A stretch of 64,000 nucleotides of DNA from an uncultured SAR86 cluster bacterium (GTDB lineage: Bacteria; Pseudomonadota; Gammaproteobacteria; Magnimaribacterales; D2472): assembly GCA_902557645.1 (NCBI GenBank), contig CACEAP010000004.1:80649-144648 (forward strand). The letters are read 5' to 3'. Below are positions 4,453 through 58,443 of the stretch, piece after piece. Positions within the stretch are counted from its first letter, which is position 1; every line of letters starts with the position of its first letter. The translations under genes and the position numbers were made by a program. A model generated the notes under the pieces. That model did no database searches. It had not been told where the DNA came from and saw only the letters and a program-made list of their open reading frames with translations.

Positions 4453-5049
4453 TTAATCTTTTTGCGCTATGCAGCTTAAAAGATATGCATATGATGCTCT
4501 GTGTGCTTCTGATTTACCTATCTGATTTAGTTCACCATTTTCTTTAATATTCAAAGACAAGATTGATATTATAATTTGCACCATAACAAGAAATACACCC
4601 TCTTTATTAAACATTGCTGGAAGCTTAATATTGGTTTCAATATAAGAAATTATTTGTGATGCCAATTGATGTAAAGTTTCAGATTGTACTGGAGGAGAAA
4701 CTGTATTTTGTAAAATAAGTTTTTGAGCGCCAATGTTTGAAGAGAAAAAATTAAATATTCTGATAACAGACTCTTCGGTTGCTTTAGATAAATCATCATA
4801 AATATCTTGATTGTCTGTTTGCAGAAAATTCTGAGAGCATTCTTGAATATATCTTTGAACTAATAATTCTTTTACATCATCCGGATTAGCAAAAAATTTA
4901 TAAGTTGAAGTTCTTTTTAAATCTGAATAAATTGCTAAATTAGAGATAGTTATATCTTCAGTATTTTTAGTTAAGAGGATTTGATGAGCAGCTTCAATGA
5001 TCTTAGCTACCCTTAATTTACTTCTCTCTTGTTTAGCACTTACGCCCAT
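4453..5049 (-). CDS. TetR-family transcriptional regulator
   Basis: 198 aa with an N-terminal HTH region (ITISNLAIYSDLKRTSTYKFFANPDD) in the usual TetR position. Confidence 0.75.
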   Translation of the reverse strand: MGVSAKQERSKLRVAKIIEAAHQILLTKNTEDITISNLAIYSDLKRTSTYKFFANPDDVKELLVQRYIQECSQNFLQTDNQDIYDDLSKATEESVIRIFNFFSSNIGAQKLILQNTVSPPVQSETLHQLASQIISYIETNIKLPAMFNKEGVFLVMVQIIISILSLNIKENGELNQIGKSEAHRASYAYLLSCIAQKD

Positions 5050-5178: not shown

Positions 5179-6255
5179 TTAGAGCTCTAGTGCTTTAATT
5201 ACCTCTTCAAATGAAACATATTTAAAATTCTGCCTTTTAACTATTTTCTTTCCATCATTTGTACCGTCTTGAACTACTAGCAAGCCCTTTGGATATTTAC
5301 TATTAAGCCTTGTACTAACTACATCAATACCGTCAGTGTCATTTACATTATCAATTTTTTCTGAGTGCCCAATCTTAAAGCTACCTAAATAGTTATAAGG
5401 CTCTTTACGATTATATACATTAAATGAATTATCCCCTTGAGACGAAAGTAAAATATAACCATCATAGATTGATGTTTTATAGATAGTAACTCCCTCAGGA
5501 TCATCATCAATGTTTCCTGATCTTGAATCAATAATCACAGGATTGGAGAAGTCTAAGTTTGAATTTATTTTATATGCTCTGAGTATTCCTCTATCCTGCT
5601 CTTCAGAGATTAACAGGGTTCTGTTTTCATCATCATAAACACAGCCCTCTGATTGAGCAGCATTTGCATTATTAAAAGTTTTTAATAAAAGTAAGCCATT
5701 CTCGTTATAAGACCACATTTGAACTCTAGAGCCCTCATCTTCGGTTATAAAAGCTATCACACCAAACTCTTGATCATATCCAGCACAAACCCCATATACA
5801 ATCATATTAGTACTACCCTTAAAAGAAGGATTGTTTTCAATATTAAATTTTTTTGATTTAGATAAAGCATCCATTGCTTCATCTTCATATATCCACAAGT
5901 CCAAAGTGCTAGTTGTTCTATTTGAAGCAAAAATAAATGTATATGAGCCAAAGTCATCTAAATTAACTGACCTAAGATCAATGTTATTTATATTCCCTAA
6001 TTTTGTGTAGCCAATTTTATTTGCATTTAAATCATATGTATAAACTCCACTTTTTTTATCAGTTCCAAAAATAAGTGAATTAGTAGTTGATATATTATTT
6101 ATCCATATTGCTGGATCATCAGCTGCGTCGCCTTTGGTTATGACCTGAGGAGTTTCAGCATTTGGCCTTACAACATATACGATTTTGTCTTCAGGATCAC
6201 CCAACACAAAAAATGAAAAACAAATTAGAAATGAGAAATATAATTTTTTTAGCAT
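5179..6255 (-). CDS. beta-propeller phytase (3-phytase, BPP family), secreted
   Basis: Sec signal peptide without a lipobox. AADDPAIW, DPEGV and the 358-aa length match Bacillus PhyC-type beta-propeller phytases. Confidence 0.8.
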   Translation of the reverse strand: MLKKLYFSFLICFSFFVLGDPEDKIVYVVRPNAETPQVITKGDAADDPAIWINNISTTNSLIFGTDKKSGVYTYDLNANKIGYTKLGNINNIDLRSVNLDDFGSYTFIFASNRTTSTLDLWIYEDEAMDALSKSKKFNIENNPSFKGSTNMIVYGVCAGYDQEFGVIAFITEDEGSRVQMWSYNENGLLLLKTFNNANAAQSEGCVYDDENRTLLISEEQDRGILRAYKINSNLDFSNPVIIDSRSGNIDDDPEGVTIYKTSIYDGYILLSSQGDNSFNVYNRKEPYNYLGSFKIGHSEKIDNVNDTDGIDVVSTRLNSKYPKGLLVVQDGTNDGKKIVKRQNFKYVSFEEVIKALEL

Positions 6256-6267
6256 AAATAAATTTTA

Positions 6268-6296
6268 AATAAAAAAGGCAACGTTTTCACGTTACC
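6268..6296 (-). terminator. Rho-independent terminator after the 845-aa TonB-dependent receptor
   Basis: The minus strand reads GGTAACG-tgaaaa-CGTTGCC followed by TTTTTTATT. It ends only about 12 nt before the phytase ATG. Confidence 0.6.
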
Positions 6297-6315
6297 TTTT
6301 TGAGTTTAACTAGAA

Positions 6316-8853
6316 TTACAGATTATATCTTATACCAATGGAATATGTTCTACCGTACTCATCATATTGGGATAACCTGTTAGGAGTTCCCCAATAATAA
6401 AATTCTGGTTCATCTGTAATATTACTAATATCAAATTTGATACTCACTTGATCATTAATCTTGTACTTAAGATTAAAGTCTATTTGAGTATGATCATCAG
6501 TGTATCTAATATTATTATTATCTAAATCTTCCTGGATAGTTTCACTATCATCATCAGCAAGATAATCCAAATAAGGAGATCTTGAAACAGCTGATAATCT
6601 GATATCAAACTTATTTTTATCATAACCTATAGAAATGTTTGAAACGTCTTCTGATAATTTTCTAAATGGAAAACTCACAGTTCCGTTATCTACAGCTAGG
6701 GAAGAATTTCCATCAGTTTTTGTAAAATTCATTGAAATAAACAAACCATCAATAGGTTCAGGCAGCATATTTAGCTCTTGAAATATATTTAATTCAAAAC
6801 CATCAACATCAGAGTCATCTGTATTTACAAAAGTTAATAATTCATCAAAAAACAAGCCATTTACAGTTGTATTAGCGACTGCGAGTGGATAGATTGCATT
6901 TTCAATATCTTTCTTAAAATATCCAAATGATGCAAATGAGCCGTCACCGTAATACTCAATTGATAAATCAAAATTAGTTGCTTCATACGGGTCAAGATCC
7001 GGATTACCCATCTCACCTCGATAATTACCATCATCTCTTTCAGTTATGTCTGCTATTAAGTTTGCTTTACCAAAGCCTGGTCTGGATAACGCTCTCCAAA
7101 CTGCGCCTCTTATAATAGTTTGATCATTAAGGAAATATTTTACATTCAAGCTAGGAGATACAAATGTATAACTTTTTGATGCAGTTAAAACATCATTTAC
7201 ATCACCATCATTATATCCAAGAGTATCGTAATCTGTATCTTCAACTCTGATACCTGCAATTACAACTGCCTTATCAAAATCCATTGTACCCATAAAATAT
7301 AATGCTGTGATATCTTCATTGGTAGTAAAATCTTCTTCATAATTATCATAGTCAGGTCCACCTGTATATTGGCCTTTTCTTGCATATAAAAGGTTATGAT
7401 CAGCATGAGGACCATAAGCTTGTCCAGCAAATGGCCATGATCTTATGTATGGTGCAAATTCAGATTGAAGTAAAGCTTGCACATCATCATCATCAACTTC
7501 TATTGCATTGCTATCACCTTTTTTCTCTCTAGATCTATATTTAAAACCATACTTTAGTGTTGTTGGAACATCCATAAACATAAATCCATCTTTTGTCATA
7601 TCTATACTAAATGCTGTTTCAGTATCTTTTATTAGACTCCAATCTTCTTCCCATGCATCAACATTTAAATCACCATAAAGCACACTTTGAGCGTATGAGG
7701 TAAGAGCTAAACCAACTTTTTGAGGATTCTGATAAAAGAAAGTACCACAAGGACCTCCACAGTCATCGGTATCAATCCTCTCACTTCTAAATGTTACATC
7801 GACGTTATCTGTATCATTTTCTTCAGCATAAGAATGGCTAAACTGTATTTCTGCAAACCAATCATTTATTAGAGTTTCTCCACCAAGTATTACAGTTCTA
7901 ATATCTCGTGTTTCAATTCTTTTTCTAACTTCAGCATCTCTTCTTATTCTATTAATTTCACTTGAGCCTGCAAATACGTTACCTGTTCTAAGAGAACCAA
8001 ACTCTTCTTTGTTTCTTAATTCATCATCCTCGTAATGGTTATATAAAAAGTTTGCATAAACTGAGGTGTTATCATCAATCACCATATCAATATCATAAGT
8101 AACACCAGTTCTCTCTCTTGTTAAATCATAAAATCTCATTTCCCAATCGTCATCAAGAAAGATATTACCATTGTCGGTATCCCATGCAGGAAAACCTGTT
8201 TCGTTATTGTAGGTAACTATTTGTTTGTTAGCATAAGTAACACCAAGAACATGACCAACAGTATCTGAAATCATGGATCCATAAGTTAAGGCCATTTTTG
8301 GATTATCAGAATTTTCTGATTGTGTGTTATATGAAGTATCTAGCTTTGCTTTGAATAATGTACCATCAAGTGAAGTTGCTCTCTTTGTATTAAATTCAAT
8401 TCTGCCACCTATTGAGTCAGCATCTTGATCAGGAGTTAGTGTTTTATAAACCTCAATTGAATCAAGTAACTCTGTTGGTAATCCATCAAGCATGACTGTT
8501 CTTCCACCCTCTGGAGCAGGAACAAGTGCTCCGTTTACCGCAATTGAATTTAGGTCACCAGATATGCCTCTAATATTTACGTATCTACCTTCACCTTGAT
8601 CGTTTTCAACTGAAATGCCTGATAGTCTTCTAATGGCTTCAGCTGCAGTTGTATCCGGGAAATCACCTAAAGCATCTGAGTCAACAATTGACACTACTTG
8701 ATTTGATTCTCTTTGTTTATCAATAGCAGAAATGATACTTGCTTTGGTGCCTATTACAACAAGTTCCTCTACTATACTATCAGTATTAGATGCTTCATCT
8801 TGGGCAAATATAAATGGCGTTATTGTGAATAAAGTTAAAAGTGATTTTTTCAT
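6316..8853 (-). CDS. TonB-dependent outer-membrane receptor
   Basis: Signal peptide, a plug region (EELVVIGTKAS…VSIVDSDALGDFPDTTAAEAIRRLSGISV, NIRG), and a long beta-barrel. Confidence 0.9.
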   Translation of the reverse strand: MKKSLLTLFTITPFIFAQDEASNTDSIVEELVVIGTKASIISAIDKQRESNQVVSIVDSDALGDFPDTTAAEAIRRLSGISVENDQGEGRYVNIRGISGDLNSIAVNGALVPAPEGGRTVMLDGLPTELLDSIEVYKTLTPDQDADSIGGRIEFNTKRATSLDGTLFKAKLDTSYNTQSENSDNPKMALTYGSMISDTVGHVLGVTYANKQIVTYNNETGFPAWDTDNGNIFLDDDWEMRFYDLTRERTGVTYDIDMVIDDNTSVYANFLYNHYEDDELRNKEEFGSLRTGNVFAGSSEINRIRRDAEVRKRIETRDIRTVILGGETLINDWFAEIQFSHSYAEENDTDNVDVTFRSERIDTDDCGGPCGTFFYQNPQKVGLALTSYAQSVLYGDLNVDAWEEDWSLIKDTETAFSIDMTKDGFMFMDVPTTLKYGFKYRSREKKGDSNAIEVDDDDVQALLQSEFAPYIRSWPFAGQAYGPHADHNLLYARKGQYTGGPDYDNYEEDFTTNEDITALYFMGTMDFDKAVVIAGIRVEDTDYDTLGYNDGDVNDVLTASKSYTFVSPSLNVKYFLNDQTIIRGAVWRALSRPGFGKANLIADITERDDGNYRGEMGNPDLDPYEATNFDLSIEYYGDGSFASFGYFKKDIENAIYPLAVANTTVNGLFFDELLTFVNTDDSDVDGFELNIFQELNMLPEPIDGLFISMNFTKTDGNSSLAVDNGTVSFPFRKLSEDVSNISIGYDKNKFDIRLSAVSRSPYLDYLADDDSETIQEDLDNNNIRYTDDHTQIDFNLKYKINDQVSIKFDISNITDEPEFYYWGTPNRLSQYDEYGRTYSIGIRYNL

Positions 8854-8916
8854 AAGTTTAATAATTATTTAATTTGATCAACATACAAATAATTTGTTAC
8901 GTAGATAAAGATATAA

Positions 8917-8934
8917 TGTGACAATCATGTAACA
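8917..8934 (-). promoter_or_regulatory. Pho-box-like direct repeat upstream of the receptor at 6316-8853
   Basis: The minus strand reads TGTTACA-TGAT-TGTCACA (7+4+7), 64-81 nt upstream of the ATG. The E. coli Pho-box pattern is CTGTCAT-4 nt-CTGTCAY. Confidence 0.55.
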
Positions 8935-8971
8935 ATTTAGAGCTTATTTATATTTATTTATATATCTCTTA

Positions 8972-11599
8972 CTAGAAGGAGACTTTAAATCCAAGTGAAG
9001 CTGATGTACCAAGATTATATTGATCATATATTGCAATATTTCTCATAGATGCATAGTACTCCTCATCCAGTAAATTTCTTAATTCAAACGATACTTTTAA
9101 CTCATATTTAGGGTATGAGTAAATTTTTGAAAATGCAAAATCTACCAATAGTGGAGGCTCTTCAATAATATCCGGCAAAACATCAATACCTCTAGCTCTT
9201 ACCCTATCACTAACATAGTTAACAATTAGGGTTGCTTGAGTTTGATTTTGTAAATTATCTAAACCGATTTGAAGGTTTGCAATTGTATCTGATTGACCCT
9301 GCAATCTGGTATCCCTTCCATTCGCAAGAAGATTTTGAGCATCTACTAGAGTACCAATACTATTTATATAGGTATCTCCAGGGTTTACAATTACTTCAGA
9401 TTCAGTTTGCGTATAATTAAACTTAATGAGTAAGTCGTTAGGAGAATCCATAATCGCCTCGAATAATTGCTCATATTCAATTTCAAAACCATTAATTTCA
9501 GCCAAAGGAACGTTTTGGTAAGAGGTAATAATTAAATCACCTGACTCATTAACAGTTTCTTCGATAGGTTTAAGAATTTCCTTTGAGAAAATACCAGCTG
9601 TAAAAAATTGATTAAAACCTAAGTAGTATTCAAGTCTTAAATCAATATTGTCAATCTCACTATTTTCTAAATATAGTGAACCAGCTATTACTCTGTCAGT
9701 ATCAACATCTATAAATAGTGTTGGGGATAGCTCTCTGAAGGTTGGTCTAGCAATTGTTTGAGAAGCACCGAATCTAATTTGAAGGTTTTCATCAAATTCA
9801 GGGAGATATGTTAATGTCATTGAAGGTAGCTGATAATCTTCTTCTATTGATTTATCAATTACAGAATCAACACCTGAAAATAAATCATATGTATTAACTT
9901 GCTGAAGGCCTTCTTCTTGCCTAATTCCAGCAGTAAATTCAAAATTATCTCCAATTGAAGATTCAACACTAATGTATGCTGAGTCAATTTCCAATAATCC
10001 TAAGTACCCGGCTGGCGATGAACTTGCAGTATTCTCGATTACCAGTAATCTATTAGGATCAAAGTTTTGGTCAGCAAAAATATAGTCTATTCTGTTATCT
10101 AGGCCATCTTGAGGTAAGGGACCACCAGCAGCCAAAAATCTAAAACTTCTAACTTCAGCTGACCTATCATTTTCAATGTTTTCAACTCCAGTTCTCAAAA
10201 ATGTTGATTCGCCAAGGGGGATCTCTAGATCTATAACAACATTTGTATTTTGGTCTTGGACCATACTAAATTGGGTTTGGTTCCTACCTGTATTAACATC
10301 ATATAAATAGACTCCGTCTTCATCTCCATCTTCATAGAAAACAACTCTTTCATATGGAGAATCTCTCTCTGCCCTTCCATCACCCAAACTTACATCTAAA
10401 GTCCAGTCATTTTCAAAAGTCTTATCATAATTAAACTGATGATTTATTAGTTCTCTTTCATAAAATTCTAGATAATCTTCTCGAACATCAGATGAATCGC
10501 TTGAATCATATCCTTGGATGATACGCCCTTCTTTTGTTCCTTTATGAATGTATAGCCCAGTGTATTTTATTTCAGATGAATCAGTTTCAAGACCAACAAC
10601 ACCCATTGCATATGCTGTAACATCATTTGATGTGCTTTTAAAAGTTTTGTCATTTTGAACAACAACATCTACAGTACCATCACCTTGGTTTTGTAAATCA
10701 CCAGTTTGTCTGATTCCTTCTTGTGTATCCCATGAACTTTTTAAACCTGAAGTAAACATGAAGCCCATTGTTGCACTAGGATCATTAATGAGTTTATCAA
10801 TTCCTAAACCGTCAAGAGTATCTCCATAGGTCAAACTATAAGATTGATCTAGAGGAACATCTCCTGATTGTAAAACCCATAGCTTTGAATTTTCAAAATT
10901 TCGACCAAAATTAGCCAATTGCGTTGAATTAAAGTTAGACCTATCAAGTTTAAGGTTGTTATCAATAGCATGCTTAATACTCCATGGAATATCTCTAGTC
11001 CCGTCATCGTAACCAAAACTATCATCACTTCCACCGTCATACATTAGCCCATCATCTTTTAATGAAGTAGCAGAGTTATAGCCAGTTGAAGCTGAAAATT
11101 CAAAGACTCTATCTAAAGGAACAGCTTTTGTATTTATCTCAATCATACCTCCACCAAACTCACCAGGCATGTCAGCTGAATAGGTTTTTTGCACTACAGC
11201 TGATTCAATGATGCTTGTAGGAAAAAGATCAAGAGGTACAACTCTCTTAAGTGGTTCAGGACTTGGAAGATTAAGGCCATTAAGTGAAGCAGATGAATAT
11301 CTGTCACCTAAACCTCTTACATATACATATTTACCTCGCACTAAACTAAGACCTGTAAGTCTTGTAAGGGCGATAGCAATATTATCATCACCGGTTCTTT
11401 CGATTTCTGATAAATCTAATACTGCTGAAATCTCGGATGTATCTCTTTTCTCATCTGGTATAAAAGATCCGCTTATCACCACTTCTTCAATTTCCTGAGC
11501 ATTGATAAACAATGGAGAAACTATCATGAAGGATAAAGCAAGCTTTAAAAAACCCAAGACTTTGTTTGTTTTTTTTGTTGATTCCATTTTGACTCCCAA
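8972..11599 (-). CDS. TonB-dependent outer-membrane receptor
   Basis: Signal peptide, plug motifs (EEVVISGSFIP…, VRGLGDRYSSASLNG), and a C-terminal aromatic residue (…GFKVSF). Confidence 0.9.
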   Translation of the reverse strand: MGVKMESTKKTNKVLGFLKLALSFMIVSPLFINAQEIEEVVISGSFIPDEKRDTSEISAVLDLSEIERTGDDNIAIALTRLTGLSLVRGKYVYVRGLGDRYSSASLNGLNLPSPEPLKRVVPLDLFPTSIIESAVVQKTYSADMPGEFGGGMIEINTKAVPLDRVFEFSASTGYNSATSLKDDGLMYDGGSDDSFGYDDGTRDIPWSIKHAIDNNLKLDRSNFNSTQLANFGRNFENSKLWVLQSGDVPLDQSYSLTYGDTLDGLGIDKLINDPSATMGFMFTSGLKSSWDTQEGIRQTGDLQNQGDGTVDVVVQNDKTFKSTSNDVTAYAMGVVGLETDSSEIKYTGLYIHKGTKEGRIIQGYDSSDSSDVREDYLEFYERELINHQFNYDKTFENDWTLDVSLGDGRAERDSPYERVVFYEDGDEDGVYLYDVNTGRNQTQFSMVQDQNTNVVIDLEIPLGESTFLRTGVENIENDRSAEVRSFRFLAAGGPLPQDGLDNRIDYIFADQNFDPNRLLVIENTASSSPAGYLGLLEIDSAYISVESSIGDNFEFTAGIRQEEGLQQVNTYDLFSGVDSVIDKSIEEDYQLPSMTLTYLPEFDENLQIRFGASQTIARPTFRELSPTLFIDVDTDRVIAGSLYLENSEIDNIDLRLEYYLGFNQFFTAGIFSKEILKPIEETVNESGDLIITSYQNVPLAEINGFEIEYEQLFEAIMDSPNDLLIKFNYTQTESEVIVNPGDTYINSIGTLVDAQNLLANGRDTRLQGQSDTIANLQIGLDNLQNQTQATLIVNYVSDRVRARGIDVLPDIIEEPPLLVDFAFSKIYSYPKYELKVSFELRNLLDEEYYASMRNIAIYDQYNLGTSASLGFKVSF

Positions 11600-11617
11600 A
11601 TAGGTTTTATAAAGTTA

Positions 11618-14548
11618 TTAGTTAAGTTTTATTGATCCAGGTACTGTCCATCCTTTGTACCAATTATCAGTTGCTCCGCTAACTGCACCTATGTAAGTAA
11701 CTTCTTCAAAAAATCCATCGGCATTGTATATTGCAGGAACAGTTGTAACAGTAGCACCACTCTCTGCAGAACCATTAACAACTCCATTAAGTGTATTTAC
11801 ATAAGTACCGCCACCAGATGTAGCTGCATATAAGTTAGTGTCAGGAGATTCCTTAACAATAGCCTCAATTGTTGATACTGCAACACCATCATTAGTTTTA
11901 ATAAATCCTGGGCAATCAAATGCTATAGAGTTCATAGAGAAATTAGGTGTTATAGCACCATCGAGAGGTGTTTCTGTTTTAGTAGTCTCTATACAATTTG
12001 TTGATTTGCCTGTAACTTCGTTAAGAACAGCAGCAACTCCATTATAATATTGACCTGATACACCCTCTTTTAACTTAAATATATCGTCATGGCCTCTACT
12101 TACAAATGTAAAATTAGCAACAATTGGATTTGATCTAGGCTCACTTAAATAACCAACAGTAACATCACTGTTAACATTATCTGATTCGACAATGTGATCA
12201 CCTTTATCGTTAGCCTGTTGAACTATAACGTATTGAAGTCTTCCTTGATAACCCCAATCAATGTCCAAGTTATCATCATCATTTCCAGTACATATCAAAT
12301 GCTTGACATCAACTGTTCCACCAAAGAACTCGACGCAATCATCAGCATTGTTATGGACTTGTATGTATTCAACCGAAGTACCACTGCCAACACCACCAAA
12401 AGTGATTCCATTTAGCTCATTACCTGGAAATACCTCATAACCTGCATACTGAACTCTTAAATATTTAAGTGCTCCACTGCTATCAGTAGGTATTTCACCA
12501 CCCATTACATCTCCAGTTGATCCCTCAACCTCTCTCTCACATGGAACGATTCTTACTCCTGTTGAAGAGTATGAACACTTATTAATTGGTGATTGACCAA
12601 GAATGACCAATCCGCCCCAAAGCCCTCGTGTTGAGTTAACATCTGCTTGACCAAGAATATCTTGTCTTCCAGTCATCACAATTGGAGCTGATTTTGTTCC
12701 TACAGCGTTAATATCGGATCCTCTCATGATTACTAAGTAGTCATTACCTGATTCACCAAAAACTGTTACGCCAGGATTGATAGTTAACGTAGCTGAATCG
12801 CCGTTTGAAGCAGCACCATCTGCTCCAACATCAACACCAATTTGAACTTTACCGTCAAGCTTGTAATAGTTTCCTGCTACTAGAGTTAAATCATCTGTTA
12901 TAACTCCATTTAAATCGCAAACCTTTCTACCTAAAAGAATTTCAGATTCAAGAGTTCCAGCAGGACATTCAGGATCGGTAAATAGACCAACAGTCCAACC
13001 TGCGGCCCAGTTATTTTCTGCATCAGATCCAGGTGAAAAAGCACCAACATAATCGGTTGCTGAAAACCATGTATTAACTATGTAATTACCGTCATCGTAT
13101 CCAGGGCATAGTTCTGTTAATGCTCCAGCTGCATGAGTTCCAACTGCACACATATCATCAATTTCTGATATGGAGAATGCGCTAGGAACAGCAGACTCTG
13201 TATCGCCCAAGAAATATGTGTCTACCATAGTGTTAGATCCAAAGTTTAAATTTGTTGATCTTGATGCAAGTGATGTTGCAAATTCTGCAGCCGTTGCTGC
13301 ATCAAACTTTACAGGGAAGTCTGTTTCATTAGCTGAATCAAAAAATATTGAATGATGGGCAATTTTATCTGTTAATGCGCCATCTTGAATAGTTTCTAAA
13401 AAAGTACCCTCTACGAGATTCTGTGATACTTGGTTTACAACAATACCATTTATATAAATTCCAGATACACCCTCTTTATACTTAAGTGGTTCGTCAGCAC
13501 CACCCCCAATAAAGGTAAAATTAGCAACCATCGGTTGTGATCTGGGCTCTGTTAGGTAACCTACTGATGCATCAGCATTTGTATTATCTGATTCTACAAC
13601 GTGATCACCTGAACCAACATTTTGTTTAACAACAACAAATTGCATTTTTCCTTGATAGCCCCAATCAATGTCAAGATTATCATCACCTGCATTTGTACAA
13701 ACTAAATGTTTTACATTTACTGTTCCACCAAAAAACTCTACGCAATCATCTTGGTTGTTATGAACTTGAACATAATCCACCTCTGTACCATAACCAACAC
13801 CGCCAAAGGTAATACCATTTAATTCGTTACCTGGAAATATTTCTTTACCTGCGTATTCAACTCTAACAAAGTTTAAGACACCAGAGTTATCATCTGGAGA
13901 AGCTCCACCCATAATAGCAGTAGTAGAACCTTCAACCACTCTTTCACAATCAGCAGTTCCTATAAGATTAGGGCTGCATTTGTTAATTGGTGCTTTACCT
14001 AAAATTACTATTCCACCCCAAAGACCACTTGCACTATCCGGATTAGTTAAAGATCCATCAATCGCTGAGGCCGCAGTAAACCTAATAGGATTAGATCTCG
14101 TTCCGTTAGCAACGATTTTTGATCCTCTTTGAACAACAAGATAATCATCAGGTGTTTTTTGAGCAAGGGTTACACCAGCTGGAATTGTTAATGTTGCAGC
14201 AACTCCTCCAGTTTTTGTTCCATCTCCACCCATATCGACACCAACATCAACTAAGCCAGATAAACGATACATTACATCAGTTGTCAGAGTTATATCATCA
14301 GTTATTGGACCCACAATTGCGCATAGTGTATTTCCACCAACAGTTGCATCATTAGAAATAAATGGAGAAGAAGGACATGATCCCGTTAATAAACTACTTG
14401 TTCCACCTCCATCATTACCACCGTCACTTGGGGCTGATAGTGGTCCTAGCTCACCAGGAGAAACAATGCTAGTATCACCTGCTCCACACGAAGCTAAAAT
14501 GAAAATTGAAGAGATTAAAAATAAGTTTTTAGTTGATTTTAGGTTCAT
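11618..14548 (-). CDS. 976-aa surface/periplasmic lipoprotein with two homologous halves, function unknown
   Basis: Lipobox ILASC. It ends 18 nt upstream of the receptor gene. Both halves repeat GLWGG(I/L)VILG…PINKC…VEGST…GNELNGITFGGVG…VHNN.DDCVEFFGGTV.VKHL.CT…DDNLDIDWGYQG. Confidence 0.85.
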   Translation of the reverse strand: MNLKSTKNLFLISSIFILASCGAGDTSIVSPGELGPLSAPSDGGNDGGGTSSLLTGSCPSSPFISNDATVGGNTLCAIVGPITDDITLTTDVMYRLSGLVDVGVDMGGDGTKTGGVAATLTIPAGVTLAQKTPDDYLVVQRGSKIVANGTRSNPIRFTAASAIDGSLTNPDSASGLWGGIVILGKAPINKCSPNLIGTADCERVVEGSTTAIMGGASPDDNSGVLNFVRVEYAGKEIFPGNELNGITFGGVGYGTEVDYVQVHNNQDDCVEFFGGTVNVKHLVCTNAGDDNLDIDWGYQGKMQFVVVKQNVGSGDHVVESDNTNADASVGYLTEPRSQPMVANFTFIGGGADEPLKYKEGVSGIYINGIVVNQVSQNLVEGTFLETIQDGALTDKIAHHSIFFDSANETDFPVKFDAATAAEFATSLASRSTNLNFGSNTMVDTYFLGDTESAVPSAFSISEIDDMCAVGTHAAGALTELCPGYDDGNYIVNTWFSATDYVGAFSPGSDAENNWAAGWTVGLFTDPECPAGTLESEILLGRKVCDLNGVITDDLTLVAGNYYKLDGKVQIGVDVGADGAASNGDSATLTINPGVTVFGESGNDYLVIMRGSDINAVGTKSAPIVMTGRQDILGQADVNSTRGLWGGLVILGQSPINKCSYSSTGVRIVPCEREVEGSTGDVMGGEIPTDSSGALKYLRVQYAGYEVFPGNELNGITFGGVGSGTSVEYIQVHNNADDCVEFFGGTVDVKHLICTGNDDDNLDIDWGYQGRLQYVIVQQANDKGDHIVESDNVNSDVTVGYLSEPRSNPIVANFTFVSRGHDDIFKLKEGVSGQYYNGVAAVLNEVTGKSTNCIETTKTETPLDGAITPNFSMNSIAFDCPGFIKTNDGVAVSTIEAIVKESPDTNLYAATSGGGTYVNTLNGVVNGSAESGATVTTVPAIYNADGFFEEVTYIGAVSGATDNWYKGWTVPGSIKLN
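11940..12967 (-). repeat. intragenic duplication, copy B (about residues 528-870)
   Basis: Begins at CPAGTLESE…ITDDLTLVAGNYYKLDGKV, parallel to copy A (…ITDDITLTTDVMYRLSGLV). Boundaries are approximate. Confidence 0.7.
13350..14377 (-). repeat. intragenic duplication, copy A (about residues 58-400 of the lipoprotein)
   Basis: Long colinear protein similarity to copy B. The core is also recognisably similar at the DNA level, e.g. ccaccaaaaaactctacgcaatcatc versus ccaccaaagaactcgacgcaatcatc. Confidence 0.7.
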
Positions 14549-14647
14549 AAGAATTCCTTTTAAAAAAATTAATGAAGAAATTTAATAATTTTCTTGTGAA
14601 CTTTAAATTGGTTTTATGTAAAGATTTTGTTAAATAAATCTATTTAA

Positions 14648-14665
14648 TGTTACAACAGTGTTAAC
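14648..14665 (-). promoter_or_regulatory. weaker Pho-box-like repeat upstream of the lipoprotein/receptor operon
   Basis: The minus strand reads GTTAACA-CTGT-TGTAACA, 100-117 nt upstream of the ATG at 14548. The first half-site is degenerate. Confidence 0.35.
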
Positions 14666-16138: not shown

Positions 16139-16978
16139 ATGAGCTTAATATCTTTAGATCAAACCATTTATAAAAAGCTTAATCCAAATGCATATGCTCT
16201 TGAAAAGAGAAAGCTTCAAATTGAACTCTTAAAGCTTCAAGAAGATGTTATAAAAAATAATAGAAAATTATGTATAGCTTTTGAAGGAAGAGACACTGCT
16301 GGAAAAAGTTCGGCAATTAAATTCTTTTCTGAACATTTAATACCAAAAAATTTTAGCTATGTGCATTTAGGAATTCCATCTAAATGGGAATCATCTCACT
16401 GGTTTCAAAGATGGGAAAAAGTATTACCAGATGTTAATGAAATAGCTTTTCTTGATAGATCTTGGTATACCAGAGCTATAACTGAACCGGTAATGAATTA
16501 CTGCAATGAAAAGCAATATAGAGCCTTTATGAACAGGGTGAATGATTGGGAAGAAAGTCTAATTGCTAACGGTACTGAATTAACAAAATTTTATTTTTCT
16601 CTATCTAAAGATCAGCAAAAGAAAAGAATAAAGGCAAGAAAGAATTCAGAATTAAAATACTGGAAATTATCTAAAAATGATGAAAAGGTTGTAACCAAAT
16701 GGGATGCTTTTACTTTATATAAAGAGCAGATGTTTGAAAAGACATCTACACAAATTTCACCTTGGGTAGTTATAAACTCTAATAATAAAATGATTGCTAG
16801 ATTAACTGCATTAAGATTTTTATTAAATAAAACTAACTATGAAAATAAAAAACTCCTGAAGCCAGTCTCTTGGTCAAAAGATATTGCTAATTATTCAGCA
16901 AGTCTCGATGGTGTTATGTTTAACAATTTAAATTATGAGCAATATATATCGATTACTAAATACTCTGATGATGTGTAA
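16139..16978 (+). CDS. ppk2: polyphosphate kinase 2 (single-domain PPK2)
   Basis: Walker A FEGRDTAGKSS and the lid region …FLDRSWYTRA…. The 279-aa length is typical of one-domain PPK2. Confidence 0.88.
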   Translation: MSLISLDQTIYKKLNPNAYALEKRKLQIELLKLQEDVIKNNRKLCIAFEGRDTAGKSSAIKFFSEHLIPKNFSYVHLGIPSKWESSHWFQRWEKVLPDVNEIAFLDRSWYTRAITEPVMNYCNEKQYRAFMNRVNDWEESLIANGTELTKFYFSLSKDQQKKRIKARKNSELKYWKLSKNDEKVVTKWDAFTLYKEQMFEKTSTQISPWVVINSNNKMIARLTALRFLLNKTNYENKKLLKPVSWSKDIANYSASLDGVMFNNLNYEQYISITKYSDDV

Positions 16979-27413: not shown

Positions 27414-27698
27414 TCATGCCATTCTCTTCAATTCTGAGAACTCACATGTCTTGAAACCATTTGGTTTGGTGACTTTAAAGGTGTTTCTTATAGTATTCTT
27501 AGATTCAAAATACTTCTTACCTTTTAGACAGTCAGGCGTTAAGATTTGACCCCTATAGTATGAGTCATCTTTAAGTTCGAATATGATACTCGAATCTTTC
27601 ATGAAGTATATTTTCTTTATATCGGATTTATTTAACTTTTCATCTGCCTGTGCAAATCCAACTAAAAACAAGGCAGATATTATTGCGTATTTTAACAT
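27414..27698 (-). CDS. 94-aa secreted protein, unknown function
   Basis: Signal peptide MLKYAIISALFLVGFAQA, two Cys residues, and a strong SD (CAGGAGATTGAT-ATG). A Pho box lies upstream. Confidence 0.6.
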   Translation of the reverse strand: MLKYAIISALFLVGFAQADEKLNKSDIKKIYFMKDSSIIFELKDDSYYRGQILTPDCLKGKKYFESKNTIRNTFKVTKPNGFKTCEFSELKRMA

Positions 27699-27792
27699 AT
27701 CAATCTCCTGTTATGTTTGAAACTATCTGACAACTGGACTTCGACTTCTCTACTTGCTCTTTGTGTCGTAATTGTTTCAATTATGTGTCAAA

Positions 27793-27810
27793 TGTGACAA
27801 ATATGTGACA
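27793..27810 (-). promoter_or_regulatory. Pho box (two perfect TGTCACA repeats, 4-nt AT spacer)
   Basis: The minus strand reads TGTCACA-TATT-TGTCACA, then TTTGACA, then CATAAT. A third degenerate repeat ACACATA follows in phase. The site is 95-112 nt upstream of the 94-aa ORF. Confidence 0.65.
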
Positions 27811-29624: not shown

Positions 29625-30329
29625 TTAATCAGGAATTCGAGAAAATTTATAACCAACACCTCTTATGGTTTGAACATATTTACCCATTGAACCAAGTTTT
29701 TCTCTTAACCTCTTAATGTGAGTATCCACGGTTCGAGTTGTAATATTGGAACTGTAACCCCACACATCTTCTAAAAGCTGATCTCTAGTTTGCACTCTAC
29801 CTCGCCTTTCAACCAATTGTCTTAATAGTTTAAATTCTAATGCTGTAAGAATAATTTCTTCATCATTTATGAAGATTTCATGAGATTCAATATTCATTTT
29901 TAGTGAACCAAAATTTCTATTAATTTCATGCGTCTGATTACTTAGATTTGATGTTTTAGTATTTCGTTTAAGGATTGCCTTAACTCTTAATATTAATTCT
30001 CTTACACTAAACGGTTTGGTCACATAATCATCAGCACCTAATTCAAATCCAACAACTTTATCAACCTCATCATCTTTTGCAGTAAGAATAAGAATGGGAA
30101 TTTCTTGGATCGTTGAGTTAGATTTAATTTGCCTACATAAATCTAAACCTGATCCATCAGGCAGCATAATATCAAGAAGAATAATTGAATAACTAGGATT
30201 CTCTAGAAAGGTATTTGCTTCCTCAATTGAGCCGCAGCTCTCAACTTTATAACCTTCTCTTGATAAATTATATTCAAGAGTTTTTCGTATATCTGGTTCG
30301 TCTTCGATAACAAGGACTTTATTTGACAT
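29625..30329 (-). CDS. phoB: PhoB-like OmpR-family response regulator
   Basis: Receiver domain (VLVIEDEPDIR…LLDIMLPDGSG…ADDYVTKPF) plus winged helix (TRTVDTHIKRLREKL…VRGVGYKF). Colinear with E. coli PhoB. Confidence 0.78.
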   Translation of the reverse strand: MSNKVLVIEDEPDIRKTLEYNLSREGYKVESCGSIEEANTFLENPSYSIILLDIMLPDGSGLDLCRQIKSNSTIQEIPILILTAKDDEVDKVVGFELGADDYVTKPFSVRELILRVKAILKRNTKTSNLSNQTHEINRNFGSLKMNIESHEIFINDEEIILTALEFKLLRQLVERRGRVQTRDQLLEDVWGYSSNITTRTVDTHIKRLREKLGSMGKYVQTIRGVGYKFSRIPD

Positions 30330-37473: not shown

Positions 37474-37693
37474 AAAAAAAAACAGAGCTAAGCTCTGTTT
37501 CTTCAGTTCGAGTTCCTTAGGGGTCCGAAGTGAGATTCTCTTCAGCTCCTCGGATTCTTTCTCTTGAATCCTTGGTGGGTTTCTAAGCTCTTTTTTATCG
37601 TCGACTCTTAGATACGCTTTCACCCTTAGGTCTCTTTCTGCTTTTTCTCTCTAACTCCCGTCTGCAGTTGTTTGTTAGTCGGATCAGCAGGTA
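37474..37693 (-). ncRNA. candidate orphan small RNA (about 215 nt, purine-rich, GC-enriched); identity unknown
   Basis: Bounded by its own promoter (37700-37727) and its own terminator (minus strand: CAGAGC-tta-GCTCTG followed by T9, at 37474-37499). It has no ATG and no SD-linked start. It contains the hairpin GGATTC-n8-GAATCC and several A(N)GGA-type motifs. Confidence 0.4.
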
Positions 37694-52846: not shown

Positions 52847-53341
52847 TTAATTAATTAAAACTTTCTGCAATCTATCTCTTGTACTCAAAAATACTTTATA
52901 AATTACAATAGATTTAGGCTCAATATTCTTTGGATATGGGACATTAAAACTACCCTGATTATCATAACCATAAAAATAATCGCTATCCTCAAAACCTATA
53001 TGTTGTGCTTTAACTAAAAAAGGATTACCAATATTAGCTTTGTATATTTGCTTATCATTAGCATCAAGAAAGACTATTTCATAAGTTTCTATCTCAATAG
53101 GATCCTTGTTAAAACGATAACTAGGTGTTTTTTTACCATATTCAATTGATGTAAATTCAAAGACGCCATTTTTCATAAATAACTTAACTTGGTTAAATTT
53201 ATTCTCTTGAATGATAACTTTAGTGTCTTTTAATATTTGGTGTTTACCAGGAATAATTTCGTCCAAAGCTAAGACTAATGTTGGGGCAATAAAAAAAGTA
53301 GCTAATAACAAATATCTTAACTTAATCATAAATTGCTCCAA
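52847..53341 (-). CDS. 164-aa secreted protein, unknown function
   Basis: Signal-like N-terminus (LLLATFFIAPTLVLALD). It overlaps the upstream gene by 16 nt and ends 3 nt before the next gene. Confidence 0.55.
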   Translation of the reverse strand: MEQFMIKLRYLLLATFFIAPTLVLALDEIIPGKHQILKDTKVIIQENKFNQVKLFMKNGVFEFTSIEYGKKTPSYRFNKDPIEIETYEIVFLDANDKQIYKANIGNPFLVKAQHIGFEDSDYFYGYDNQGSFNVPYPKNIEPKSIVIYKVFLSTRDRLQKVLIN

Positions 53342-55314
53342 TTAATGCCAATAGTTCCACCAGTGGTTCCGTCAATATATCCAATAGCATAATCTGATTT
53401 ATTGGTAGGATTTGTTTGATAACTTCCGGACCAATCAATTGATGTATTCCAATAATATTCACTATTAAAAAAGCCTTCATAATTGTCTGAATCTAATAAA
53501 ATATCGTCTGGTGCTGTTATAAAGCCTTGTGTATCAACTGCTTTATATGAATATTCCATTACTCCGCCATCTTCAGGCTTTGAAAAACTTACAGTTGTTT
53601 GATTTTTTAAATCTTCTTGCAATACGCCATTTACATACCAATTAAGTTCAATATTATTTGTATTAAAATCAACATCGAGCTGGTACTTAATAGCATTATA
53701 AGATCCACCCTGTTGCAAGTTATCTATTTGAGTTTCTTCTCCATCATCTGTAACTAAATAGATGCTGCTCCAAACATTAGGGCAGTTATCATAATTATCA
53801 TATTGTTTAAAACATTGGTTAGCTATAGTTTGAATTACAAAGGCTTCAGAATTTATTGGTCCATATTGAGATATAAAATTTTCAGGAACCCCCCAGCTAC
53901 CATTATAGTCACCGCCATACATAACATTATAATCTTCAGGTCTCCATGAAGCATCAGATGAATAGTAGGTTCCTAAAAATAAACCCACTCCGTCATTTGA
54001 AGCGCCTGAGGTATAACCAGGAACATTTGTTTTATCTTGGATCCAATGTGACCATTTAACATTATAAGGATCATTAATGGTGGTGGTATTTGGAGATGAG
54101 TCAGCATAAATACTCATATCGAAACCTCTGTCATCACTTGTAATATATTCATCTCCAAGATTGGCATGGCTATGACCAAGTTCATGCATAGCTATATAAG
54201 ATGTTGAACCACCTAAAGGCTGTGCATTAACATAACCCCTTGCAACTCCCCTTCCATAAAAGCCTGCAAGAATAGAAATAGTATCTGGCATAGGTCCATT
54301 TGGAAAAGCAGATGCAACATTAGCATCAAGTACATTCCAATCCCAACAATATATTGAGGTATCCCAATCAAGGCAGCCTGTGTATAAACCAACAAAGGAA
54401 TCAGTTCCATCTAAAAGCAAGGGTTCAACTGCAAGAATATTAAAATATTCTTTAACAAAATTTCCTTCATTAATTCTTTCAACCAAGTTGTATACCGTCT
54501 GACCAAGCCTGTCCCTAAAGTCATCAATATCAGTAACAGAATCAGCAACTATTAAATATGTAGTACCTGGCTGCATATTCTGCTTTTTCGTTCCGCTGAC
54601 AACATATGTTTTATAGTTTTCAGTAATTTCTATGTTGGTAGGAATAACAGCTCTGAATGAAGTTTCGCCTGAAGAGTTACCATCATTTGCCAAAATAGTA
54701 ACATCCTGAAAACCAGCTAATTGCATTTCAGAAAAATCTAATGAGATTGTGTTAGCGCCGCTATCAGAAATACTAATTACTGGAGTTGGTAAAAAGTTTT
54801 CACCTATCTTGGCGCTATAGGTAATATCAGCAAATTCATTATCTGGGTCGTTTACAGTAAATTCAAAAATTGAATTTTCTGGAAGCAATATATCTGATGT
54901 TCCTGCAGTTGCTTGAGGTGCATTAGTGAGTTGAACAACTGGAGAATCATTAACATTATTTATTGTAATCGAAACAGTTGCAGGACTTGAGATGGTTCCG
55001 TTTTCAACAGCAGTAGCTGTAAATTGAAAAGAATCATTTCCACTAAATTCAGCTTGAGGGTTATAACTAAATCCCCCATCTGGCGCTAAATTAATTGCTC
55101 CGCTAGTTGGACCAGAAACTTTTTGAAAAGTAACTGTAGCTGCGCTAGATGTAGATGCTGTTAGATTTCCAATATAAATTGCATCTTCATCGGTTGAAAA
55201 GCTTTGCGAATTCGCAGTAATAGTAAAACTTTGTCCACCACCACCGCCACCACCACAAGCAGACAATATCAATAATAAAGAAAACCCTGTGATTGTTTTA
55301 AGCGTATATTTCAT
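53326..55314 (-). CDS. lipoprotein with N-terminal cadherin/Ig-like repeats and an M64-like zinc metallopeptidase domain
   Basis: Lipobox LSAC followed by a poly-Gly linker. Ig-like repeats end in …ITINNVNDSPVV. The zinc motif is HELGHSHANLGDEY (HExxH…DEY, as in the IgA-peptidase M64 family). Confidence 0.6.
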   Translation of the reverse strand: MKYTLKTITGFSLLLILSACGGGGGGGQSFTITANSQSFSTDEDAIYIGNLTASTSSAATVTFQKVSGPTSGAINLAPDGGFSYNPQAEFSGNDSFQFTATAVENGTISSPATVSITINNVNDSPVVQLTNAPQATAGTSDILLPENSIFEFTVNDPDNEFADITYSAKIGENFLPTPVISISDSGANTISLDFSEMQLAGFQDVTILANDGNSSGETSFRAVIPTNIEITENYKTYVVSGTKKQNMQPGTTYLIVADSVTDIDDFRDRLGQTVYNLVERINEGNFVKEYFNILAVEPLLLDGTDSFVGLYTGCLDWDTSIYCWDWNVLDANVASAFPNGPMPDTISILAGFYGRGVARGYVNAQPLGGSTSYIAMHELGHSHANLGDEYITSDDRGFDMSIYADSSPNTTTINDPYNVKWSHWIQDKTNVPGYTSGASNDGVGLFLGTYYSSDASWRPEDYNVMYGGDYNGSWGVPENFISQYGPINSEAFVIQTIANQCFKQYDNYDNCPNVWSSIYLVTDDGEETQIDNLQQGGSYNAIKYQLDVDFNTNNIELNWYVNGVLQEDLKNQTTVSFSKPEDGGVMEYSYKAVDTQGFITAPDDILLDSDNYEGFFNSEYYWNTSIDWSGSYQTNPTNKSDYAIGYIDGTTGGTIGINWSNL

Positions 55315-55365
55315 ATTTATAATTTTATCATCAAAATAGTGAGTTATTAGATAGAATATTATTTG

Positions 55366-55397
55366 TAAAAAAAAGAGGGCTTTAAGCCCTCTTTTTG
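55366..55397. terminator. bidirectional Rho-independent terminator after the 1008-aa receptor
   Basis: A8-AGAGGGC-tttaa-GCCCTCT-T5. Confidence 0.8.
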
Positions 55398-55416
55398 AAT
55401 CCTAATTAATAATCTC

Positions 55417-58400: not shown

Positions 58401-58443
58401 AAATAACAAGTAATGATAATAAATATCTATTAATAAAATTCAT
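55417..58443 (-). CDS. TonB-dependent outer-membrane receptor (large, 1008 aa)
   Basis: Signal peptide, plug (EEVIVTATKRETNLMETPIAVSVVS…, ILRGPQGTLFGRNSTSGAINV), and a terminal …RFQKDF. Confidence 0.9.
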   Translation of the reverse strand: MNFINRYLLSLLVISFASITNNTFAQDAAEEAIEEVIVTATKRETNLMETPIAVSVVSQEQLNTQGIARISDLSNLVPNMQVGTSAEDSGVNIAIRGIGSNNYTEIGDPTVAVHVDGMYSPRPQAALMLAHDVDRIEILRGPQGTLFGRNSTSGAINVVSARPEFGDETTGRYGIRLGNRHMQEVDGFINMPITSEWAMRTSFKATKADSYIDQTVDMYDFQLDYNGDGKIGIANGVPGGEGQQTVLWADGRDIVADGIPNVDQRRAREVKAADAYGNTNNWAGRIGFLYAPANNLDLEWYVSLDHFQDDGAGNIYLKDCEQAELSRGMAYDFSCDQGPDDPFHAAINNPGELDFGITSLRSELKFRVNDGVVGELRVAISEQDRYQINDNDGGNFVDPSHPAYGFLREHPDSKGINADAQAGNFCGLYGCQYGWGPTVATSKGIGFTSDVYYRVQGWEFNGDFTDWGNIWNNWNHNCAVEYNDGNPYIHSCKTSWWMNDVDALVAAVGPQTAAALGGMIKPMWFDEMSRTTQEMQSDVVEFQLQSDTDDQLQWVAGVFYMAEDNSSRYDVEQPFNGTTMRPFAAAYYQPNRTVDSMAVFGQVDYAVDDRLNVTFGYRHTWDEKQDVGGKTIISHGYWTNPNTYCGNPDDCFWFESYDFVGGINLASVDGDGNFTFAPAVDFYQSDDLGMNDGIYNPNFLDIPANADNSYAAEWDAGTYKLGFDYIVNDDLFVYGSVASGFKAGGFGDNVDRGDGVFINFPYEPEDNTTFELGFKASLLGGDLKLLGNAFVSEYENMQRTMFGFVGYDEQNGNAIYTLMTKNLAETTIQGIELEFDWNAWENGRVYGWVAGLDAPQPGGAEDFADGYLCTERALLGQDPCAAAGDHNLDGKNLMWSPEVSATVNIEHTFYPASGWFVRPSLSVSHVGEMFFNETNYAVAPFHSGQEATTTANAAVTLVNETEAWGLEFYVFNLTDELIKTDSFAGNAGYVRAMYAPPRAFGIRFQKDF

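Follow-up and report, generated by a model that had tools for sequence, protein, structure and literature searches.

A probable ElpS-type lipoprotein-receptor pair next to a receptor-phytase cassette in a phosphorus-acquisition island of a SAR86 bacterium

Background

In Caulobacter crescentus the genes elpS (cc0170), cc0171 and gspC to gspN follow one another in the layout lipoprotein, TonB-dependent receptor, type II secretion system (T2SS) (Le Blastier et al. 2010, PMC2996285). The lipoprotein ElpS, of about 50 kDa, is exposed on the surface, is made under phosphate starvation and depends on the T2SS and on a protease for its release (PMC2996285). Here we analyse a stretch of 64,000 nucleotides, referred to as the window, from a SAR86 cluster bacterium (GCA_902557645.1, contig CACEAP010000004.1, positions 80,649-144,648 of the forward strand), in which the genes for a lipoprotein and a TonB-dependent receptor of this kind (TBDR1; together module A) are followed by those for a second TonB-dependent receptor (TBDR2) and a beta-propeller phytase (together module B). 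These are probably two independent and already known phosphate-starvation uptake modules lying next to each other in a SAR86 phosphorus island, and thus a new example rather than a new four-gene machine.

Related pairs have been described under other names. The pectin-lyase-fold lipoprotein BT4056 and the transporter BT4055 were proposed as a putative lid-transporter pair, with proximity of the two conserved in 621 genera (including 171 of Proteobacteria) and few high-confidence AlphaFold-Multimer contacts between them, and ElpS was named as a homologue of BT4056 (Price preprint, bioRxiv 10.1101/2023.03.17.533168). In Flavobacterium johnsoniae, Fjoh_0545 (a TonB-dependent transporter) and Fjoh_0546 (lipoprotein 'FII', with the IPR011050 pectin-lyase fold) belong to a 'PhoBR operon', rank with the genes that respond most strongly to phosphate depletion (log2 fold changes of 8.0 and 9.9) and are abundant in the exoproteome; homology of ElpS to Fjoh_0546 is stated in the literature, and Fjoh_1367/1368, a phytase and a TonB-dependent transporter, are also strongly induced by phosphate depletion (Lidbury et al. 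2021, PMC8115612). In Caulobacter the PhoB regulon takes in a phytase and several receptors as well as the T2SS (PMC11208175). A literature search joining SAR86, phytase, TonB and the Pho regulon returned nothing useful.

The window shares with the ElpS locus a lipoprotein followed by a TonB-dependent receptor, a T2SS operon nearby and a putative tie to phosphate starvation, and layouts of the same type are present in Caulobacter sp. (L071; the loci retrieved in our scans carry L numbers), Hyphomonadaceae, Sphingomonadales and SAR86. However ElpS is a single-domain protein of about 50 kDa whereas the lipoprotein of the window has 976 amino acids and two beta-helix domains, and the window pair, unlike that of the ElpS locus, is separated from the T2SS by the PHO4, PPK2 and Ppx genes and abuts a phytase cassette. 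The BT4055/BT4056 pair is likewise built on a lipoprotein that is not a SusD but has the pectin-lyase fold, and this protein has been proposed to lie against its receptor from the outer side. From its published description, Fjoh_0545/0546 can be likened to module A as a receptor and a beta-helix-fold lipoprotein in a PhoBR context, although Flavobacterium belongs to a different phylum, has the order receptor then lipoprotein, and carries its two modules at separate places in the genome. With SusC/SusD the window shares the partnership of a surface lipoprotein and a TonB-dependent transporter, a likeness in working rather than family membership: SusD is alpha-helical and the window lipoprotein a beta-helix protein, Pfam and NCBIfam scans of the window gave no SusD- or SusC-specific match, and both receptors match TIGR01782. 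The SusC/SusD-like logic suggested in an earlier note on this DNA is nonetheless reasonable, and has already been proposed in print for this lipoprotein family. Module B has the receptor immediately upstream of a PF02333 phytase, as in the receptor-phytase cassette known from aquatic and soil bacteria, and differs by the TetR-like gene that accompanies it.

Results and discussion

Two separable modules

The two modules and the gene that follows them are encoded on the minus strand:

11618-14548, minus strand: ElpS/BT4056-family lipoprotein (module A, gene 1), 976 amino acids, with a lipobox and with PF28492 assigned through an identical database cluster
8972-11587, minus strand (open reading frame 8972-11599): TBDR1, a CC0171/BT4055-like receptor (module A, gene 2), matching Plug and TIGR01782
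8917-8934, minus strand: Pho-box-like direct repeat TGTTACA-TGAT-TGTCACA, an exact match to the pattern, scoring 20.9 bits with a position weight matrix (PWM)
6316-8853, minus strand: TBDR2 (module B, gene 1), matching Plug, the barrel and TIGR01782 (488 bits, above the cutoff)
5179-6255, minus strand: beta-propeller phytase (module B, gene 2), PF02333 at 8e-52, with a signal peptide
4453-5049, minus strand: TetR-like candidate local regulator, with weak TetR-type matches

By direction of transcription the order is PHO4/Pit, lipoprotein, TBDR1, TBDR2, phytase and TetR-like gene. The sequence is AT-rich (about 32% G+C) and the organism is a SAR86-type gammaproteobacterium, its lipoprotein being 74% identical to a protein (P0019) of the complete SAR86 genome CP097974.

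The earlier note had described four same-strand genes in the order lipoprotein, receptor, receptor, phytase, and the coordinates of the reading frames and the domain matches agree. Both of its TonB-dependent receptors match Plug and TIGR01782, TBDR1 with 1.2e-7 for Plug and 205 bits for TIGR01782; TBDR1 also carries a signal peptide and a TonB box, EEVVISGS. Its start codon is most likely the ATG at 11587, which is preceded by a GGGAG ribosome-binding site, and the gap to the lipoprotein gene is then 30 nucleotides, not the 18 given in that note. The phytase matches PF02333 with 176.9 bits against a cutoff of 21 and has an N-terminal signal sequence. In the plug TBDR1 and TBDR2 are 31% identical, in the barrel 22%, which rules out that they are recent duplicates of each other.

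To place module A in other genomes, one genome per species was scanned for the lipoprotein, and 80 loci were kept, spanning Alpha- and Gammaproteobacteria, Bacteroidota, Verrucomicrobiota and others. Among the 74 with enough flanking sequence, 69 have an adjacent same-strand receptor, which is in every case closer to TBDR1 than to TBDR2; a phytase is present in none of the 80. A reverse scan of metagenome contigs with the phytase as query also left 80 loci, and neither the lipoprotein nor TBDR1 was found in any of them. What does recur there is the pairing of beta-propeller phytase and TonB-dependent receptor genes to which the earlier note had drawn attention: the gene upstream of the phytase codes for a TBDR2 homologue in L088-L092, L108, L115, L116, L118, L120, L121 and others, and many SAR86 relatives carry a phytase without any receptor. 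The closest relatives of the TBDR2-phytase pair, at 84-94% identity (about 84-90% for the DNA of the two genes), are L088, L089 and L091. They have the order Ppx-PPK2, PHO4, divergent TetR, TBDR2, phytase, with no module A between PHO4 and TBDR2, and another SAR86 locus, L005, has module A and lacks module B. Since each module occurs without the other, both across the scanned loci and among SAR86 relatives, the locus consists of two separable modules in local juxtaposition and not of one four-gene unit. The synteny of four genes that the earlier note had put forward as a check is thus not kept, and the lipoprotein, by implication the capture partner of the phytase and its receptor there, pairs in the scanned genome loci with a TBDR1-type receptor and never with a phytase.

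The same observations bear on whether the four genes could form a single device under PhoB control, with the lipoprotein capturing phytate or another organophosphate on behalf of both receptors and the phytase. The genes share one strand with gaps of only 30, 118 and 60 nucleotides (lipoprotein-TBDR1, TBDR1-TBDR2 and TBDR2-phytase) and no predicted terminator, both modules lie in the same phosphorus island, and the SAR86 genome CP097974 has the same juxtaposition with an insert of two genes. Beta-propeller phytases moreover act on metal-phytate, and the invariant Asp, Glu and Asn residues of the lipoprotein could bind a metal. We nevertheless regard such a device as quite improbable, given the complete lack of co-occurrence in the two scans (0/80 in each direction), the closest relatives with nothing of module A between PHO4 and TBDR2, the retention of module A alone in L005, a promoter-like box belonging to module B itself, and the uniformly TBDR1-type receptors beside the lipoprotein.

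Two further features of these loci concern the genes around the modules. In several SAR86 genomes, genes for an MIP channel and an ArsC-like low-molecular-weight phosphatase follow TBDR1 (L004, 15972-17032; L005, 15917-16977; L049, 15625-16636), and those of L003 and L004 stand between module A and module B; they may be an arsenate-handling pair inside a phosphate island. The TetR-like gene accompanies TBDR2-phytase in varying place and orientation, lying downstream on the same strand in the window and divergently upstream in the closest relatives, and the intergenic region of L088 (6646-7304) contains the palindrome CGACATTTGTCG.

The lipoprotein of module A

The lipoprotein begins with a signal peptide, MNLKSTKNLFLISSIFILASC, whose lipobox LASC ends at Cys21, a feature shared with its single-domain relatives. 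As the earlier note had recognized, the 976-residue protein is internally duplicated: its halves are 56% identical over 354 amino acids (E-value 7e-130). Such tandem duplication is common in the PF28492 (Beta_helix_4) family, whose members carry from one to seven copies of the domain and fall into 5698 clusters at 50% identity, and is not special to this lipoprotein. The family assignment comes from the precomputed annotation of a 100%-identical database cluster (P0001); our Pfam and NCBIfam profile scans gave no match for the lipoprotein, the Pfam copy that was scanned having no PF28492 model. Invariant residues, mostly Asp, Glu, Asn and Gly, are the same in both halves.

An AlphaFold model (AF2) built on an alignment of 19 sequences reached a predicted local distance difference test score (pLDDT) of 82.9 and shows a disordered N-terminus of 52 residues followed by two right-handed beta-helix domains. 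Foldseek searches with this model returned only beta-helix proteins, the two-domain PL6 lyases first and all with weak scores, and searches of PDB sequences with the single lipoprotein and with a profile matched no solved structure. The PL6 alginate lyases (e.g. AlyGC, 5gkd) resemble the lipoprotein in having two tandem right-handed beta-helix domains, but at 8-10% identity, a template modelling (TM) score of about 0.2 and without a match at the level of sequence.

These resemblances raise the question of whether module A might instead be a polysaccharide system, in which a surface lyase or hydrolase acting on an anionic glycan feeds TBDR1, and the position in a phosphorus island is incidental or reflects a taste for phosphorylated glycans. 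The best Foldseek matches are PL6 alginate lyases, pectate lyases, tailspike depolymerases and GH110/GH87 enzymes, TBDR1 is of the Xanthomonas/Caulobacter type described by TIGR01782, many alphaproteobacterial loci have no phosphorus genes nearby, and Lidbury et al. remarked on structural similarity to plant-cell-wall-degrading enzymes (PMC8115612). However the structural matches are weak (E-value 7e-5, with the identities and TM scores given above) and generic for the fold, and no solved structure was matched by sequence. The neighbouring genes are enriched not in carbohydrate-active enzymes or sugar catabolism but in PhoR, PhoB, PstS and the T2SS, and induction by phosphate starvation has been shown in Caulobacter (PMC2996285). 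A polysaccharide system thus appears an unlikely account of module A, and we continue to treat it as a phosphate-starvation module.

The identity of module A with the ElpS type is approached through Caulobacter sp. L071, where the positional orthologue (in the order lipoprotein, TonB-dependent receptor, gspD, gspE) belongs to PF28492 and has 36% identity to the window lipoprotein. The GspE primers of the ElpS paper match L071 with one or two mismatches; its ElpS primers are too diverged, and the peptides that they encode (FVMSCN ... AAQFG) fit the motif of the family but are too short to count. A protein search started from the Caulobacter sp. homologue gave no C. crescentus entry among the best 120.

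Two observations on the family stand apart from these questions. Directly after the lipobox Cys, the sequence C-G-x-x-x-x-(I/V)-x-S-P-G-E (residues 21-36; window 14440-14490) is kept from Caulobacter to SAR86, with CGGDINISEGD in its place in Alteromonadaceae lipoproteins, and may be a sorting, docking or cleavage signal. One database protein (P0382) had the appearance of a PstS-like/beta-helix fusion; it most likely has a start mis-called from an upstream pstS-like gene, and an internal lipoprotein signal is present.

Phosphate genes and secretion genes around the pair

Upstream of module A the window continues with the following features:

14648-14665, minus strand: degenerate repeat upstream of the lipoprotein, one perfect and one degenerate half-site, 4.9 bits
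14733-16037, minus strand: PHO4/Pit-type phosphate transporter, directly upstream of the lipoprotein on the same strand, PF01384 at 4e-113
16139-16978, plus strand: PPK2, divergent from PHO4, PF03976 and TIGR03707
16984-17844, plus strand: exopolyphosphatase Ppx, divergent from PHO4, PF02541 and TIGR03706
17864-27250, minus strand: complete T2SS operon, GspM ... GspK, G, F, E, D and a small GspC/B-like gene, with Pfam matches to T2SSM, T2SSK, T2SSG, T2SSF, T2SSE and Secretin
27414-27698, minus strand: secreted protein of 94 amino acids between phoR and the T2SS operon, with a signal peptide and no family match
27773-27810, minus strand: strongest Pho-box-like array of the window, 75 nucleotides upstream of the 94-residue reading frame, PWM 24.7 and 15.8 bits
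27860-29620, minus strand: PhoR-like histidine kinase, PnpS/PhoR models best, below curated cutoffs
29625-30329, minus strand: PhoB-like response regulator, PhoB models best at 237-241 bits, below cutoffs

The region is a phosphorus-acquisition island, with PHO4/Pit, PPK2, Ppx and a PhoB/PhoR-like pair, and this setting is in keeping with the outer-membrane phosphorus-scavenging function that the earlier note had read from the locus. The PhoB-like regulator is encoded 19 kb from module B. The 94-residue reading frame and its array (27414-27810) occupy the place at which relatives carry the lipoprotein-TBDR1 pair.

A Pfam run on 160 genes flanking the lipoprotein pair in 42 diverse loci found enrichment of PhoR, PhoB and PstS and of GspC, GspD and prepilin peptidase, with ExbB/DUF3450 as a third, smaller theme. 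Outside SAR86 the adjacent response regulator exceeds the PhoB equivalog cutoff in all eight loci tested (Rheinheimera, Arsukibacterium, Alteromonas, Glaciecola, Opacimonas, Aliiglaciecola, Salinimonas and Pseudomonadales; 330-375 bits against 296), and Alteromonadaceae have the order phoB, phoR, pstS-like gene, (2-oxoglutarate oxygenase), lipoprotein, receptor. In 18 of 19 loci of this kind, the 350 bp in front of the lipoprotein gene hold canonical TGTCA-N6-TGTCA boxes, at a density of 3.36 per kb against 0.14 per kb in the remainder of the loci, a 24-fold difference. Within SAR86, a phoB-phoR pair immediately precedes the lipoprotein gene in L006, L008, L009 and L010, and in the first three of these the lipoprotein pair stands directly between phoR and the secretion operon. 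The lipoprotein-TBDR1 pair is directly upstream of gspC-gspD in those three loci and in at least 15 alphaproteobacterial ones, the bacteria with this arrangement being Hyphomonadaceae, Maricaulis, Oceanicaulis, Kordiimonas, a Caulobacter species and SAR86.

Other neighbours were also noted. In Alteromonadaceae and Verrucomicrobiota (L044, 16811-18944; L052, 15854-18130) DUF3450 and a long gene of ExbB type come after the pair and give it a TonB-energising set of its own, and in the single locus looked at for this feature (L012, Oceanicaulis, 9092-9520) a BLH_phosphatase-like protein of 143 amino acids (PF04273) is encoded directly upstream of the lipoprotein.

Pho-box-like repeats

The direct repeat between the two receptors ends 64 nucleotides upstream of the TBDR2 start codon. 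The window has two exact copies of TGTNACA-N4-TGTNACA where 0.004 would be expected, and two or more copies were seen in none of 1000 dinucleotide shuffles. Single TGTNACA half-sites occur at chance frequency and the pattern with up to two mismatches is not enriched in the window (5 observed, 3.1 expected), so that only exact or PWM scoring separates the signal from noise. With a PWM trained solely on sites from three other SAR86 genomes the repeat scores 20.9 bits, the highest among 100 null sequences being 20.1, and an equivalent exact site lies 59 nucleotides upstream of TBDR2 in CP097974 (L004 17163). The repeat that the earlier note had placed between the receptors is therefore statistically real, and its description of the locus as headed by a Pho box holds for module B; for the lipoprotein it does not, the box there being at background level.

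The E. coli Pho box is a direct repeat, CTGTCAT-N4-CTGTCAT, with a period of 11 bp. The repeat at 8917-8934 fits this form in having two direct repeats of 7 bp with a TGTCA-like core, an 11-bp period and an A/T-rich spacer; a CRP-type inverted repeat is ruled out since the repeats are direct. Upstream of orthologous lipoprotein genes in Alteromonas, the box takes the form cTGTAACAaaaaTGTCACc, which is nearly the same as the SAR86 repeat and stands beside a canonical PhoB; this supports taking the latter for a Pho box too. The repeat at 8917-8934 is most likely the site at which the PhoB-like regulator would bind, and the putative promoter of module B. Across the 64 kb and the related loci scanned, strong sites in four SAR86 genomes precede TBDR2, the 94-residue secreted protein, a secreted protein of 141 amino acids and PHO4.

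The pattern TGTnACA-N4-TGTnACA could instead be bound by another regulator, such as the TetR-like protein or a different member of the OmpR family: each half-site is a palindrome, a TetR-like gene always adjoins TBDR2-phytase, the response regulator of the window scores below the PhoB cutoffs and many SAR86 phosphorus loci have no strong sites. The direct-repeat architecture itself, with the period and spacer of PhoB boxes, argues for PhoB, as does the occurrence of nearly the same sequence before Alteromonadaceae lipoprotein genes that lie beside canonical PhoB. Arrays also precede PHO4 in L004 and L005, and L088, L089 and L091, in which the TetR gene is divergent from TBDR2, do not have the repeat. 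Binding by a regulator other than a PhoB-like one is, on this evidence, doubtful.

The best arrays of three other SAR86 genomes, with two to three phased TGTAACA repeats, precede the 141-residue signal-peptide protein in L004 (9317-9792), L005 (9283-9790) and L006 (378-878); the protein has no Pfam match and no homologue in the window. In L004 and L005 another array, of four half-sites, precedes a membrane protein of 41 amino acids encoded in front of PHO4.

A putative working of the two modules

In module A the lipoprotein would be held by its lipid anchor and a flexible linker of about 35 residues at the outer leaflet of the outer membrane, where it would bind, or possibly cleave or trim, a phosphorus-bearing substrate too large for porins and hand it over to TBDR1. 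The T2SS may contribute to release or processing of the lipoprotein, as has been shown for Caulobacter ElpS. In module B, TBDR2 would import phytate or its metal complex, the phytase would free phosphate in the periplasm or at the envelope, and this phosphate could enter through Pit/PHO4 or Pst. Module B would be driven by its own promoter, with the PhoB-like regulator binding the TGTnACA-N4-TGTnACA direct repeat. Module A is expected, by analogy with its relatives, to respond to phosphate in this genome too; it might be switched on by read-through from PHO4, by the weak box or by something else.

Several points weigh against this account of two independently controlled phosphate-starvation modules. 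The four genes are tightly packed on one strand and a terminator scan predicted none between them, so that read-through from module A into module B is possible; the scan for sigma-70 promoters and terminators performed no better than on shuffled sequences in this AT-rich window, and is uninformative on operon structure. The repeat that the earlier note had reported upstream of the first gene (14648-14665), GTTAACA-CTGT-TGTAACA, has two mismatches and at 4.9 bits is indistinguishable from chance, about five sites of 9 bits or more being expected by chance per window; a relative with 93% identity (L010) has a similar GTTAACA-N4-CGTCACA, and a weak function may thus exist. Fourteen of 16 further SAR86 phytase or PHO4 loci have no strong repeat sites, and the motif is therefore not a universal mark of phosphorus genes in SAR86. 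The best NCBIfam models for the regulator are those of PhoB, but its 237-241 bits fall below their cutoffs of 270-296, and the PnpS/PhoR-like kinase, likewise below its curated cutoff, has a Cache-like sensor domain in addition. In many alphaproteobacterial loci no phosphorus genes lie near the lipoprotein pair. In Caulobacter, cc0171 is reported as constitutive, and ElpS is associated with extracellular phosphatase activity without having such activity itself (PMC2996285). The putative link of the window lipoprotein to ElpS is drawn from the positional orthology of L071 and from published statements. The analysis itself shows what the genes are, the fold and duplication of the lipoprotein, how often it is paired, the modularity of the locus and that the repeat at 8917 is significant and conserved; surface exposure, the ligand, PhoB binding and induction at this SAR86 locus are inferred.

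It is also conceivable that the SAR86 lineage moved the lipoprotein-TBDR1 pair to the front of TBDR2-phytase because the modules cooperate, from an ancestral place taken to be between phoR and the T2SS operon, as in L006, L008, L009 and Caulobacter. The tandem beta-helix lipoprotein would then capture phytate or another polyanionic phosphorus compound (polyphosphate or a phosphorylated polymer) at the surface, by means of its invariant acidic residues and a bound metal. We give this little credence; were it true, a lipoprotein-transporter family spread over more than 600 genera would gain its first ligand, and a marine heterotroph that ranks among the most abundant would have a major route for taking up organic phosphorus.

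Under the two-module reading that we prefer, what is new is that a SAR86 form of the ElpS-type pair and one of the phytase cassette lie here as neighbours; no new kind of system is involved. SAR86 is uncultured and very abundant in the ocean, and its phosphorus-uptake hardware is known from sequence alone; the window indicates that it carries the ElpS-type pair, which experiments in Caulobacter and Flavobacterium have tied to phosphate starvation. The comparative data add canonical PhoB, PstS and Pho boxes beside the pair in Alteromonadales and Rheinheimera, and the T2SS beside it in Alphaproteobacteria and SAR86. The real interest lies in the ligand of the ElpS family, and these data narrow down where to look for it and point to culturable relatives.

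Other features of the window

Two features lie further along the window. The IMES-1 RNA motif (Rfam RF02034), known from marine environmental sequences, is matched over its full length at 37498-37688 on the minus strand, with 188 bits where the gathering score is 81. At 53326-58443, also on the minus strand, a third TonB-dependent receptor (1008 amino acids) is followed by a protein with M64-peptidase-like and bacterial Ig domains, another pairing of a receptor with an exoenzyme in the window.

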